Shown here in pieces: positions 37,979 through 43,073 of a stretch of DNA of 64,000 nucleotides. The notes beneath the pieces were generated by a model. The model was given only the letters and a program-made list of their open reading frames with translations. It did not search any database and had not been told where the DNA came from. The DNA is from Dictyostelium discoideum. Its lineage: Eukaryota. The stretch lies in assembly GCA_000004695.1 (NCBI GenBank), contig CM000150.2, positions 3,808,001 through 3,872,000 of the forward strand, given 5' to 3'. Numbering within the stretch: the first letter of the stretch is position 1; every line of letters begins with the position of its first letter. The translations under genes and the position numbers were made by a program.

Positions 37979-38032
<54 letters not shown>

Positions 38033-38750
38033 GTTTATATTTTCAATATTATCACCATTTTTAGCATTATTTAGTTGGTATGGTTTGGAAAAGTTTTGTA
38101 TGGCATATTCTCTAACAACATTAAGCAATTTATTGCATCCATATTTTATAATTATTGCAGGATTTCTTACATCCTATCAACCTATAATTGGCTTCATGAC
38201 TAATTTTAAAGAAAGATTGGATTCCATTTATCCAAGAATAACATATGAACCAACATCTGGTTTAAATGACTATAAACAATATCAGCAACAACAACAACAA
38301 TCACAAAATAGGAATAGTACGGAGGACTTAGGATGTTCATCATCATCGTCAACTTCACCACCACCACCATCATTATTTGCATCTTCAGATAATATTGTAA
38401 ATTTAATGAGTAGCCAAGAAGCACAATTTAAGAATTTTGTTTTTAATCATACAAAGAGTAGTGAAGATGGTTTAAGAAATGAATTGGCTCAATTTAGATT
38501 GGAATTTTCAAATTATATTAAAAATTTAAATGCAGATAATAATCAACTAAAAAGAGATATTAGAGATTGGACTTCAAAGAAATCAAATGAAATAACCAAA
38601 ATTGATTCAAGAATGTTATCTCTTGAAAATCAAATGGAGTTATTACAAATGTTACTGGAAAAGGAAAAAGCTTCATCTTCATCCTCTTCAAAATCTGATA
38701 TATTTAGAATTTTAACTCCATTTTCTCAAAAAATGTTATCTTTAAAATAA
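37549..38750 (+). CDS. Multi-pass membrane protein with C-terminal coiled coil, unknown function, ~335 aa; 3 exons approx 37549-37638, 37741-37937, 38030-38750
   Basis: Exon 1 (MLKQLSEPLKSFQQITLFVIVPLLIAVHAE|GTAAGT) has phase 0. Exon 2 (…YQLEWR) ends at a GTAAGT donor. An AG acceptor after a 45-nt T-run at 38029 gives frame continuity into the 38031 ORF. Four hydrophobic helices are followed by a Ser-rich linker and a coiled coil (LEFSNYIKNLNADNNQLKRDIRDW…LENQMELLQMLLEKEK). Confidence 0.55.
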
Positions 38751-39027
38751 TTAAATAAATTAATAAAAAAAACTACAAATTAGGAAATAATATTAAACAC
38801 CAAGAATTATTTTGTTTTATTTTATTTTTTTTTTTTGGTTGGCTTTGGAAAATTTTCTTTGAAAATAAAATTTTATTTTTTTTTTAATTTTTTTATTTTT
38901 TATTTTTTTTATTTTTTTTAAAGTCAAATTATTTTTAAAAAAAAAAAGATTATTATTTATTTTTTACTTTAATTTTTTATTTATTTATTTTTTTTCATTT
39001 TTCAGATATTAATTAAATATACAAAAC

Positions 39028-40476
39028 ATGGCTAATCGTTTACTCAATGTTGATGTAAGTTTATTTTCATTTAATCTTATTATTATTATTATTTTTATTT
39101 ATTTATTTTATTTATTTTAATATTATCTTTATTAACTATCCTATAATTTACTTTTTATTTCAATGTTTCATTTTTGGTTTTTTTTTTTTTTTTAATCTAA
39201 ATTCTAAATAGATGAGAAAAAATAACGTCGTAACTGACGATGATGATTGGGAAACAGAAAGTGATTATGTAAGTTTTTTAAAAAAAATAAAATAAAAATA
39301 AAAAAAACATCATTTTATTAACATTATTTATTTTCATTTTATTTTTTTGAAATTATATAGGTTGTAAGTTTTTAAGATTTATTTAGGTATTGATTTTATT
39401 ATTTTATTGAATTGGATTATTTATTTTTATTTTTATCATTATCAAATAAATAGAATACAGATAATATTGATAATTCAAAACAAACTCAAAAAACTGTAGT
39501 TCCAGTTAGAGCATCAGAAATTGGAAAAGATATGCTTTCAAAACAAAAACCAGTGGATCAAGTACCAAGTTCACCTGTAGGAACAAGATTTGGAAATCAA
39601 ACAACAAACACATACACTCCACCTGGTGTTGTTGTTTCAAAGAAGCCTGCTGCTGCTCCATCTAAACCAGCTGCACCAGCTCAAACATCAACCTCGTCAA
39701 TTGCTTCCAAATTCTCACAACCAGCTGCTCCAGCTCAAACCCCAGTTAAACCATCTGCTCCAGTTTCATCAGTTGCTTCTAAATTCTCACAACCAGCTGC
39801 TCCAGCTTCAACTCCAGTTAAACCATCTGCTCCAGTTTCATCAGTTGCTTCCAAATTCTCTCAACCAGCCGCCCCAGCTCCAGTTAAAGCTGCTCCAGCT
39901 CCAGTTAAAGCCACCCCAGCTCCAGTTAAAGCTGCCGTTCCAGTTAAAGAAACACCACCACCAGCTGCACCAGCCAAAAAACCACCACCACCACCAAAAA
40001 GAGTTGAACCAGTTTATGAAGAACCAGTACAAGAAGAACCACAACAAAATTATGAAGAACAACAACAATATGATCAACAAAGTTATGACCAACAACAATA
40101 TGACCAACAAAGTTATGATCAACAAAGTTATGATCAACAAGGATATGATCAACAAGGATATGATCAACAAGGTTATGATCAACAACAACAATACGATCAA
40201 CAACAATATGACCAACAAAGTTATGATCAACAAGGTTATGATCAACAACAACAATATGATCAACAAGGTGACGACCAACAACAATATGATCTTTCATCAT
40301 ATCCTCAAGCTCAAGCACTTTATGATTATGTTGCTCAACAAGAAGGTGATTTAACATTTTACACAGGTGATATAATTTATGTATATGATACCTCTGACGA
40401 AAGTGGATGGTATTCCGGTCAATTGGCTGACGGTTCTAATGGTTCATTCCCTAGTAATTTTGTCCAACTTTTATAA
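39028..40476 (+). CDS. SH3-domain protein with N-terminal acidic DDW motif, Pro/Ala-rich repeats and QQYDQQSYD repeats; at least 3 exons approx 39028-39054, 39212-39268, 39454-40476
   Basis: MANRLLNVD|MRKNNVVTDDDDWETESDY|NTDNIDNSKQTQKTVVPV… is spliced via two GTAAGT donors. The repeat 'SKFSQPAAPA' occurs three times and 'PVKAAPA' three times. The C-terminal SH3 is canonical (ALYDYVAQQEGDLTFYTGDIIYVYDTSDESGWYSGQLADGSNGSFPSNFVQLL). Confidence 0.6.
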
Positions 40477-40908
40477 GACCTTTTGTAAAAATTAGAAAAA
40501 AAAAAAAAATGAAAAAAAGATAAAATTATCGAGTGTCACTTGTATATTATCATCAATAAAACGAACATTATTTATTATCTTAAAAAAAAACAAATTATAT
40601 TCTTAATTAAATTTTCAAATATTAATATACAATAATACAAAAACTATTAAGTTAATAAAATCTATTTTTTTTTTTTAAATATCTTTTTTTTTTTTTTAAT
40701 TGTAACATATTTCCCATATTTATTGGAAATAAGAAAAAAAAATAAAAGGTTTGATATCCTTGTTTTATATCATTATAAAAAGAAGTTTATTTTTGAAACT
40801 AATGAGAGAAAAGAGAAAAAGAGAAAATAAAGAAGTAATGCTTTTTTTTTTTTTTTTTTTTATATAAATATTTTTTATTTTTATTTTTTTAATTTTTTTG
40901 ACCAACAA

Positions 40909-42149
40909 TTAAAACCAAACATCTTGTAAATATCTACCATGAGAACTCATATCGTCAATGAATTGTTGAGCAGAGTTATCATCTTTTGAACCAAATTCTT
41001 TAATGATTGATAAGAGGGCTTGTTGTACAGCTTTGGACATATTTCTACCATCACCACAAACGTAAAAGTAGGCACCTTTATTTAATAACTCCCAAACCTT
41101 TTCTTTATGCTCCAATAATTTATTTTGTACATAAACTTTTTGAGAAGTTTTTCTTGAGAAAGCTACAACCAAATCACCTAAAACTGAGGATTGATGATAT
41201 TGTTCCAACTCTTCTCTGTAAATATAGTCGACTGTATCGGAACGACAACCAAAGAATAAGAGTGATTGTTGTTGTTGTGAATGATTTCTATGTTGTAATT
41301 CTTGAAGGAAACCTCTGAAAGGAGCTAAACCAGTACCAGGACCAACCATAATGACAGGTTTTTGTTCGGTGGCGGCAGATGGTAATTTAAAGTGAGATTC
41401 TCTAACAAATAATGGAACTTTATCGCCAACTTTTAAGTGAGATAACCAAGTAGAGGCGACACCATTATGAGCTCTTTGATTACCAGTTGTGAAATTAACC
41501 ACTACAGAGGTAATTGAAACAACGCCATTCTTATTGTGAGGTGAAGAGGAGATAGAGTACATACGGGCTGGTAGACGTGGTGTAAATTCTAAAAAGTGAG
41601 CAATCAAAGGTTGAAGACCTGGGAAAGATTCTAAAAGATCGACGACACCACGGAAATCATTTTTAATATATTTATTGTATTCTTCGTTTGCTTCTTCGGT
41701 TGCTAAATATAATAATCTCTTCTTTTCCTCTTCGTTAGTGGTTGACTCTGCCAATGCACGTAACACTGATTTACGTACTGGATTTGTAATATCCAAATGT
41801 TCAGAGAATGCCCTTCTAATTGTCATTGGACCAAAGCTTGCTTTAATAACTGAACCCTCTTGATCAATTGGTACCAATGCAATCATATCATCACCATTGA
41901 CACCCAAACGCTTTATCAATTGTTCAACCAATTTACTATCATTAATTGGGAATACACCTAAATGATCACCTGTTGTATAACTAACTTCATCACCCAATTT
42001 AAATTCAATATGTCTACATGATCTATCAGATTCATTTGAATGTAATTCTCTATTTTCTAAAACCTCTGCATAATATGGATTTTTCATATCATAAATTCTT
42101 TTTTTTTTAAAAAAAAAATAAAAATAATAAAAAAAAAATAAAAATTATT

Positions 42150-42230
<81 letters not shown>

Positions 42231-43073
42231 TTTAAATTTTATTAAAATATATACATACACTTTATTATCAGTTGATAATTTTGGTTTTAATGGAGTTGAA
42301 ACGATTTTAATGAAAGGATCATTAATATCTTTACTATCTTGATTTAAAGTTACCATTCTAAATCTTGGTACGAATTTATCATCTTCAGTTGATTTTAATT
42401 CATAACCTAAGAATTTACAAACTACAGGCCACATATCTTTTTTCCAACGATTGAAATCTTCTTCAAGAGTTGCATCATCATCACCTTCACCTCTTTCAAA
42501 GACTCTTTTACCACCTAATTCTTCCATTCTTCTATCGATAACACGTGCAACGGCATTGTAATGTTCATAAGTTTTATTACCTAAACCAAATACAGTGAAT
42601 GGTACACCATTGAGAAGATCGGTTGGACGTTCATCATTTGTTAACCAAAGGTAGAATTCTTTGGCATTATCGGTTGGATCACCTTCGCCATGAGTTGCAA
42701 CTAAAAACATTACAAAACTTTCACTATGTAATTCTTGTTCGTGTTCATAGGATTCCAAGTCTACAACTTCACATGGGATACCAATCTTTTTACATTCTTT
42801 TTCAATGATTCTTGAGAAATCTTCGGCTGTACGTGTTTGTGTACCAAAGAATATTTTCATCACCTTTTTACCGTCTTCATTCTTTGTGATTGTCTTTTTT
42901 GGTTTTTGTGCTTCTTTGTTGATCTTATTGTTTGGTTTATTAAATACTGGTGGTGGTGGTGGTGGTTTGTTCATATAAAGGTATGTACCCACTATAACTG
43001 CAACAATAATAATCGCTCCTAAATTATCTAAAATTAAAACTTCAATAAAATCAATTGATTCTAAAATTTCCAT
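40909..43073 (-). CDS. redB: NADPH-cytochrome P450 reductase (membrane-anchored FMN/FAD/NADPH diflavin reductase), ~667 aa; 2 exons approx 43073-42259 and 42097-40909
   Basis: The N-terminal anchor and flavodoxin domain are in exon 1. Exon 2 begins …IYDMKNPYYAEV (compare rat PFDAKNPFLAAV) and carries FAD/NADPH motifs (RMYSISSS, GPGTGLAPFRGF, YVCGD) and the CPR C-terminus …LQDVWF*. The donor is GTATGT at 42258, and the intron contains a long (ATT)n tract. The symbol follows Dictyostelium naming and is an inference. Confidence 0.85.
42153..42230. repeat. (ATT)26 microsatellite inside the CPR intron
   Basis: Direct reading. Translated on the minus strand it gives the poly-N seen at the end of the track ORF 42084-43073. 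Confidence 0.9.

Follow-up and report, generated by a model that had tools for sequence, protein, structure and literature searches.

Introduction

The class II nucleation-promoting factors (NPFs) cortactin (CTTN) and HS1 (HCLS1) carry an N-terminal acidic motif of inverted polarity, 37-amino acid F-actin-binding repeats, a charged helical domain, a proline-rich and acidic-tyrosine region and a single C-terminal SH3-domain. Cortactin is, as reported, restricted to Holozoa (PMC3748353). On the inactive Arp2/3 complex residues 20-29 are the only part of cortactin seen by cryo-EM: W22 occupies a hydrophobic pocket between subdomains 3 and 4 of Arp3, D20, D21, E23, D25 and D27 face basic residues around this pocket, and the A domains of NPFs as well as Arpin use the same Arp3 site, the polarity of cortactin being inverted (PMC10613254). 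In the branch junction cortactin makes further contacts to Arp3 through residues 24-54 and the helix 55-76, and its repeats extend along the daughter filament (PMC11102864). The fragments Cort1-76, Cort18-76 and Cort1-33 bind Arp2/3 with a KD of 2.2-5.4 μM, and cortactin fragments are competitors of WCA at Arp3. Yet, Cort1-33 gives no co-activation with GST-WWCA.

Here we describe a spliced gene on the + strand at positions 39028-40476 of the window, by which we mean the whole 64-kb stretch of DNA that was analysed. Its predicted product of 369 amino acids from four exons shares with cortactin/HS1 the N-terminal inverted acidic motif, here DDWETESDYVN, and the order of acidic motif, proline-rich plus acidic-tyrosine region and single C-terminal SH3-domain, whereas the 37-amino acid repeats, the 31-76 region (SEKEQRWG…) and the charged helical domain are all missing. 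Because the defining HS1 repeats are absent, the protein stands outside the cortactin/HS1 family; in working likeness it would amount to the N-terminal acidic motif of cortactin joined to its SH3 end. A motif of the cortactin type, regarded until now as exclusive to animals and the unicellular organisms most closely related to them, appears to be present in a social amoeba. With the A domains of WASP-family NPFs and of Arpin the protein has in common a short acidic peptide with one Trp and, as predicted, the same Arp3 pocket; but those motifs are C-terminal and of opposite polarity, while the one in the window is N-terminal and of the inverted cortactin type. WASP-family NPFs further possess WH2 and C elements, of which no WH2 was found by Pfam and no C helix by inspection only, and Arpin consists of a folded domain with a C-terminal acidic-Trp tail, a domain that Pfam did not detect in the window protein. 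Abp1/drebrin-like proteins (ADF-H plus SH3) resemble it in the SH3-domain and in the composition of the tail preceding it, yet the window protein has no ADF-H domain. In the literature we found no description of the window protein.

Structure of the gene

The gene is made up of the following parts:

39028..39054, + strand: exon 1, encoding MANRLLNVD; start codon at 39028, ATG in an A-rich context, donor GAT/GTAAGT
39055..39211, + strand: intron 1, 157 nt, GTAAGTTT…AAATAG, 11% GC
39212..39268, + strand: exon 2, MRKNNVVTDDDDWETESDY, with the cortactin-type inverted acidic motif, Trp being residue 22
39269..39360, + strand: intron 2a, 92 nt, GTAAGTTT…TTATATAG, 9% GC
39361..39363, + strand: probable micro-exon, GTT for Val29, which completes the motif as …SDYVN…
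39364..39453, + strand: intron 2b, 90 nt, GTAAGTTT…ATAAATAG, 13% GC
39454..40476, + strand: last exon, with linker, repeats, SH3-domain and the stop codon TAA at 40474-40476

All introns start with GTAAGTTT and end with ATAG. Their GC content of 9-13% compares with 33-39% in the exons, and outside the coding sequence GC at the locus is 9-17%. Such extreme AT-richness together with short GTAAGT…AG introns is typical of dictyostelid genomes, the probable source being Dictyostelium discoideum or a species near to it. Joining 39028-39054, 39212-39268 and 39454-40476, i.e. the gene without the micro-exon, yielded an open frame of 368 codons. Translation of these three exons gave the N-terminus MANRLLNVDMRKNNVVTDDDDWETESDY/NTDNIDNSKQTQKTVVPV…, which reproduces exactly the one proposed in an earlier note on this DNA; with the Val of the micro-exon it reads MANRLLNVDMRKNNVVTDDDDWETESDY(V)NTDN…. 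The 5' exon structure assumed in that note agrees with a metagenomic relative, L051, the ORF of which starts with MTNKL…LDV. Exon 1 is supported because this stretch is uninterrupted in L051, where it forms part of a single contiguous ORF.

Relatives of the window protein

JGI metagenome contigs were scanned for DNA encoding DDW[ED]T[DE]xx[FY]VN, which returned 79 stretches. Nearly all ORFs read across them had the motif near the N-terminus and a cortactin-like look, and 16 of the 22 long motif-bearing ORFs that were scanned with Pfam were canonical cortactins with HS1 repeats. L051 (with its duplicate L072) is devoid of HS1 repeats. It is an intronless ORF of 367 amino acids on a genomic contig of 31% GC, has a full-length identity of 64% with the window protein and an identical architecture, keeping the DDW block, the linker, the SKF.QPA units, KKPPPPPKRV and a (YDQxG)n tract. 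From this comparison L051 is likely to be a dictyostelid orthologue. L028, also free of HS1 repeats, consists of the motif, a charged coiled coil of ~300 amino acids, a proline-rich region and an SH3-domain. A further relative, P0021, is a metagenomic protein of 323 amino acids (58% GC) that was retrieved by a search with the full-length protein. It has the architecture of the window protein: …GGDDDDWETDSSFVNTTS… is followed by AP-rich repeats (AAKFNQPAAAP), by an acidic tract rich in Tyr and, at the C-terminus, by the SH3-domain. Unlike the window protein, it has a second acidic-Trp motif.

Motif and SH3-domain are both present in L051, L072, P0021 and L028, none of which carries an annotation. 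In L051, P0021 and L028 the extended form DDDDW[ED]T[DE]xx[FY]VN lies near the N-terminus, and all three have a proline-rich region and a C-terminal SH3-domain. The motif block is invariant across relatives of 31-61% GC that are 30-64% identical to the window protein. The earlier note would have taken a loss of the DDW block in orthologues as evidence against its reading; the block is kept in L051, P0021 and L028. In L062 and L020 the motif is found on fimbrin-like EF-hand/CH proteins.

Other searches added little to this set. The exact product, whether with Val, without Val or from exon 2, was not present in a collection of 15 billion proteins. Word-indexed protein searches with the N-terminal 93 amino acids or with a two-sequence N-terminal alignment returned nothing, and the full-length search of this type was dominated by low-complexity and Abp1 matches, yet P0021 was among them. 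The best 150 matches to a profile of P0021 and the window protein were mostly multi-SH3 proteins and held no further members with DDW. When the N-terminal alignment was used to look for related loci, 600 stretches fitted the pattern, and tblastn confirmed none of them.

A micro-exon of three nucleotides

The earlier note had guessed at a micro-exon within the second intron. The sequence AGGTNGTAAGT, which fits AG/GTN/GTAAGT, is found a single time, at 39359-39369, when both strands of the 64-kb window are counted, while the expected count of this pattern is 0.07 per 128 kb (64-kb window, two strands). The micro-exon divides an intron of 185 nt into introns of 92 nt and 90 nt, each of the form GTAAGTTT…ATAG. 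The encoded Val, located between [FY] and N, is present in L051, P0021, L028 and every cortactin. With Val no gap is needed to align the window protein with L051 between the DDW block and residue ~90, and Val29 likewise results in gapless alignments to P0021, L028 and cortactin. In addition, 17 canonical cortactin N-termini were combined into an HMM, and the score of the window N-terminus with this HMM rose by 7.3 bits, from 17.9 bits without Val to 25.2 bits with Val. The unique splice-site pattern, the gapless alignments and the HMM gain all back the guess, and the predicted GTT micro-exon at 39361-39363 is very probably real. It is the kind of exon that gene predictors would miss, and the sole residue it contributes, Val29, belongs to a structurally defined binding motif.

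The N-terminal motif and cortactin

Residues D18-N30 of the window protein are DDDDWETESDYVN, with D20, D21, W22, E23, T24, E25, S26, D27, Y28, V29 and N30 forming the motif. The Arp3-contact residues D20, D21, W22, E23, D25 and D27 of cortactin correspond to D20, D21, W22, E23, E25 and D27, i.e. all contact residues are identical or conservatively replaced, and Trp is residue 22 in both proteins. Ten of the 11 motif positions agree with cortactin, including the non-acidic positions T24, F/Y28, V29 and N30. The 25.2 bits obtained by the window N-terminus with the cortactin HMM compare with 13.2 bits for the best of 20,000 composition-preserving shuffles.

The opposite direction was covered by profile searches against the PDB (177,635 distinct sequences, E ≤ 10). 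The profile of the four repeat-less N-termini gave two matches only, both of them cortactin and both aligned at residues 20-31: 8tah_H (Cort1-76 on Arp2/3) with an E of 4.8e-4 and 8p94_I (cortactin at the branch junction) with an E of 4.6e-3. A profile of just the window protein and P0021, neither of which was retrieved via a cortactin-derived pattern, ranked these two chains first and second with E of 0.017 and 0.094. Judged from these searches the link works both ways, from the cortactin HMM to the window protein and from the family profile to cortactin 20-31, with cortactin and the window protein each the other's best match at the motif. In 596 Gb of genome sequence from bacteria and archaea no stretch matched the DNA pattern for DDW[ED]T[DE]xx[FY]VN, which argues for a highly specific motif rather than a chance one. 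Taken together, the resemblance to cortactin exceeds chance by the sequence criteria applied here. A phmmer search of the PDB with the 94-residue N-terminus yielded chance matches to BRIL/cytochrome b562 only (EDNWETLNDNLKV, E ≥ 0.12). Over the first 35 codons dN/dS against L051 was 0.54, a moderately low value from few sites.

As aligned by the HMM, the shared stretch is the Arp3-binding core of ~13 residues only. The alignment of the window protein to cortactin stops at N30/T31; a counterpart of residues 31-76 of cortactin (meander plus I55-T76 helix) was not detectable in it, and the conserved SE(E/K)EQRWG.KT segment of cortactin had no match in the window protein. The likeness to the cortactin N-terminus claimed in the earlier note thus stands for this core, but not for the match of KQTQKTV with WGAKTV that the note had also drawn. 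Its KTV is not kept in L051 and the agreement is probably a coincidence.

Linker, repeats and low-complexity tracts

Between the motif and the C-terminus the last exon encodes the following segments, among them the three repeat systems that had been described earlier by eye and were all recovered by Tandem Repeats Finder (TRF):

39454..39650, + strand: lineage-conserved linker, amino acids ~30-95, NTDNIDNSK…VRASEIGKDMLSKQKPVDQVPSSP…TYTPPGVVV
39697..39880, + strand: AP-rich repeats of 24 amino acids, 2.6 copies, TRF period 72 nt with 91% matches (…SVASKFSQPAAPA…)
39867..39949, + strand: PVKAxPA heptads, 3.3 copies, TRF period 21 nt (39867-39936)
39973..40005, + strand: KKPPPPPKRVE, polyproline with basic residues, a segment kept in L051
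40006..40291, + strand: acidic Tyr/Gln-rich tract, PVYEEP… followed by (QQxYD)n in about 15 copies
40303..40473, + strand: C-terminal SH3-domain, ALYDY…GW…FPSNFV; Pfam SH3_1 at amino acids 315-367, E 3e-13

The linker aligns without gaps to that of L051, with NIDNSK, VRAS.(I/V)G(K/R)D(M/L)L.KQ.P(V/I)D.VP(S/T)SP and TYTPPGVVV in common, and has no similarity to residues 31-76 of cortactin. Each copy of the 24-residue repeat contains S(I/V)ASKFSQPAAPA, and SKF(N/A)QPA units are also found in L051 and P0021. KKPPPPPKRVE is a candidate ligand of SH3-domains or profilin. The (QQxYD)n tract consists of 15 units of 15 nt at 40060-40291 (TRF periods 15, 30 and 63) and has an analogue in the (YDQSG)n tract of L051. 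AlphaFold2 on exon 3, run on the single sequence without an alignment, gave a pLDDT of 48, too low to be informative. Considering the low-complexity composition, the 369-residue scaffold is probably largely unstructured outside the SH3-domain.

The conservation of the linker (amino acids 31-95) raises the point that it could be a source of unrecognised activity, which would make the protein more cortactin-like; a candidate is the amphipathic segment ASEIGKDML, located ~30 residues past the Trp with a spacing that resembles that of the cortactin helix. In the most probable of the alternatives to our reading the protein is a functional cortactin, i.e. a genuine NPF of class II that also stabilises branches. 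The linker would then replace cortactin 31-76, and F-actin would be bound by the SKFSQPAAPA/AP-rich repeats instead of HS1 repeats. The order of acidic motif, repeats, proline-rich/acidic-tyrosine region and SH3-domain is that of cortactin, L051 and P0021 have kept the linker and the SKF.QPA units, and a BLASTP HSP pairs SIASKFSQPA with the post-repeat segment NLKNRFEQLA of cortactin in the same order. Yet, this HSP is not significant (E 0.14), HS1_rep was not found by Pfam even at E ≤ 10, the cortactin HMM alignment ends at N30/T31, and Cort1-33, with no more than the core motif, does not co-activate. Nor do we know of an actin-binding precedent for AP-rich repeats. We consider a functional cortactin of this kind unlikely.

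The SH3-domain and its similarity to Abp1

The earlier note had recognised a canonical C-terminal SH3-domain and the absence of cortactin repeats and ADF-H. Pfam at E ≤ 10 agrees, as it reported SH3 families only, and HS1_rep (PF02218), ADF-H (PF00241) and WH2 were not found. The SH3-domain is 78% identical to that of L051 with a dN/dS of 0.11. Apart from the orthologue the best match was Abp1 of D. purpureum (59% identity, E 3e-22), followed by other amoebozoan Abp1 proteins with 53-57% identity, whereas identity with the SH3-domain of cortactin was ~43% (about 40-46%, E 9e-9). By sequence, the SH3-domain is thus nearest to amoebozoan Abp1 rather than to cortactin. The dictyostelid Abp1 gene is abpE. 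The pre-SH3 tails of the window protein and Abp1 have a proline-rich, PEPEP, VYEEP and QQYD composition in common. Outside the SH3-domain similarity to Abp1 was not significant in composition-adjusted BLASTP. The Abp1 matches P0001, P0003 and P0004 all carry PF00241, and the N-terminal DDW motif is absent from the Abp1 matches examined. A tail element x(K/R)F(E/Q/S)Q occurs in the same order in the window family, Abp1 and cortactin, without being significant (E 0.14).

These data bear on a second alternative, in which the protein is an Abp1-derived SH3 adaptor that has lost ADF-H and has no role with Arp2/3, the DDW block being convergent or non-functional. Acidic-Trp motifs arose repeatedly, yeast Abp1 being another case. 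Since they are recurrent (WASP family, Arpin) and only ~13 residues are alike, the motif may be convergent. An Abp1 origin fits the SH3-domain, for which Abp1 is the closest relative, the PEPEP-VYEEP and (QQYD)n composition common to both tails and the shortness of the similarity to cortactin. It fits less well with an agreement at 10 of 11 positions in which T24, F/Y28, V29 and N30 go beyond mere acidity, with a Trp that is residue 22 in both proteins, with a block invariant among relatives of 31-61% GC and 30-64% identity, with the absence of the motif pattern from prokaryotes, and with the lack of significant Abp1 similarity beyond the SH3-domain. We rate this alternative as slightly less probable than a functional cortactin, and as improbable overall.

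Proposed role of the protein

We lean towards a reading of the window protein as an SH3 adaptor that tethers Arp2/3 or competes for it and that is not an autonomous NPF, and hold this to be moderately probable. The N-terminal motif would bind to site 2 of Arp3 with roughly micromolar affinity, and the SH3-domain, possibly also the PPPPPKR polyproline, would bind proline-rich or SH3-bearing regulators of actin. Because of these two predicted interactions the protein might tether Arp2/3 to such partners or compete with the A domains of NPFs or Arpin at site 2 of Arp3. An adaptor is suggested rather than an NPF because Cort1-33 binds Arp2/3 without co-activating. Nucleation, co-activation or branch stabilisation in the style of cortactin appears unlikely since the WH2/C elements, the 37-amino acid repeats and an equivalent of residues 31-76 are missing. 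The earlier note had proposed a minimal Arp2/3-NPF-like adaptor. In our reading an Arp2/3-binding adaptor is the better supported part of this proposal, while the term NPF-like exceeds the precedent set by Cort1-33.

The least probable alternative is a competitive inhibitor in the manner of Arpin, in which the acidic-Trp motif fills site 2 of Arp3 and blocks NPF A domains while the SH3-domain merely targets the inhibitor to sites of actin assembly: the motif type shares its pocket with NPF A domains and Arpin, activating elements are absent and cortactin fragments do compete with WCA, yet the cortactin N-terminal domain, which binds in the reverse orientation, is not inhibitory, its competition is limited to site 2 and leaves site 1 (Arp2-ArpC1) free, and with a micromolar KD inhibition would be weak unless the protein is locally concentrated.

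Evolution of the cortactin-type motif

The window protein is from an amoebozoan, whereas cortactin has been reported only in Holozoa (PMC3748353). We tentatively suggest, with somewhat less than even confidence, that the inverted acidic Arp3-binding motif of the cortactin type is an ancient portable module older than Holozoa, and that the amoebozoan adaptors may be viewed as a 'proto-cortactin'. In this scenario the module would occur in Amoebozoa on repeat-less SH3 adaptors, i.e. the product of the window gene, L051, P0021 and L028, and in other protists on the fimbrin-like EF-hand/CH proteins L062 and L020, and cortactin would have arisen by insertion of HS1 repeats into an adaptor with acidic motif, proline-rich region and SH3-domain. 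The window protein also bears on the evolutionary assembly of cortactin. If the module is indeed ancient, Dictyostelium, a main model for Arp2/3-driven motility and macropinocytosis, would have an unrecognised and genetically tractable regulator of Arp2/3; we found no paper that credits Dictyostelium with a cortactin-type factor. With the Arp3-contact residues of cortactin, but without F-actin repeats, the protein would represent a natural separation-of-function variant that permits a direct in vivo test of Arp3 site-2 occupancy plus SH3 scaffolding.

Neighbourhood of the gene

No RNA genes or tRNAs were found in 38500-41000, and ORFs on the minus strand over the repeats were rejected as genes, being low-complexity artefacts. 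Synteny with L051 was not found; a neighbour of L051 looks ORC2-like by eye. The window gene is preceded by a gene for an M1 aminopeptidase, with a small ORF nearby, and is followed by a convergent flavodoxin/FAD/NAD gene of the P450-reductase type.

Cortactin-type motifs on other proteins

Among metagenome contigs matching the DNA pattern that encodes the cortactin-type DDW motif, one group encoded proteins with the motif at their start, joined in L062 and L020 to a different architecture. The motif-bearing ORFs are:

L062:80-2479, + strand, EF-hands and also CH domains downstream of the motif, fimbrin/plastin-like
L020:1179-2240, - strand, EF-hands downstream of the motif
L046, L055 and L027, further contigs of the group

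The contigs are eukaryotic with a GC content of 63-72%, and L062 terminates in poly(A). The protein start encoded on them is MADDDDDWETDADYVNDLTEEQQRAFGNKETM. The group scored 40-44 bits with the HMM of canonical cortactin N-termini, the match covering the flank VND(L/V)(T/S)E.(E/Q).R..G.K as well. From the EF-hand/CH continuation together with these scores, it seems that outside Holozoa a cortactin-type Arp3-binding module is fused to a different actin-binding protein.

Another motif-bearing contig (61% GC) encodes a relative with an SH3 domain:

L028:120-1691, + strand, ORF of 524 aa with HDDDDWETEADFVN close to its N-terminus

Here the motif is followed by a highly charged, coiled-coil-like region of about 300 aa, a proline-rich PEPEPEP stretch and an Abp1-like SH3, while no HS1 repeats were present in the ORF. 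By its sequence the protein looks like cortactin minus the repeats but possessing a helical domain. P0178 is a 5'-truncated look-alike.

P0021, the metagenomic relative sharing the architecture of the window protein, has two acidic-Trp motifs, one N-terminal and cortactin-type, the other internal:

L001:16-984, P0021, internal motif DADEDDGGWDDE at aa ~186-197

In contrast, the window protein and its likely dictyostelid orthologue L051 have the N-terminal motif only.

Two GC-rich contigs (65-70%) encode DDDDDDWDTEADFVNEVTDD:

L045:1-252, - strand
L049:565-1143, + strand

The motif lies about 45 residues past the first Met; a charged helix comes before it and Pro-rich sequence after it. A Pfam scan of L049, the one of the two that was scanned, found no domain, and we regard the pair as a further non-cortactin type of protein bearing the motif.

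Six contigs (L002, L004, L016, L057, L069 and L070) have in common a 41-aa ORF, RIADGGEDTDDWDTDPDFVNEVGEQGV…, whose copies are the same or nearly so. Because the motif-encoding pattern did not occur in 596 Gb of prokaryotic genomes, the ORF was judged not to be prokaryotic; it is probably a single exon of a cortactin-motif gene of some eukaryote.

The top phmmer match in the PDB for the N-terminal 94 aa of the window protein was BRIL (cytochrome b562, …EDNWETLNDNLKV…), an engineered fusion partner, with E values of 0.12-1.6. We rejected it as a chance match, which could misdirect automated annotation.

Genes adjoining the locus

The neighbouring genes in the window are:

40909-43073, - strand, downstream and convergent, reductase gene with flavodoxin, FAD_binding_1 and NAD_binding_1 domains
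38031-38750, + strand, directly upstream, ORF of 239 aa

The reductase is of the NADPH-cytochrome-P450-reductase type. Its gene reads as two ORFs overlapping by 4 nt; a long poly-Asn tract forms the end of the first, so the halves are probably separated by an intron or by an insertion of AT-rich sequence. The upstream ORF had no Pfam match; its N-terminal part has hydrophobic segments, its C-terminus is coiled-coil-like, and the ORF also contains a run of poly-Gln.
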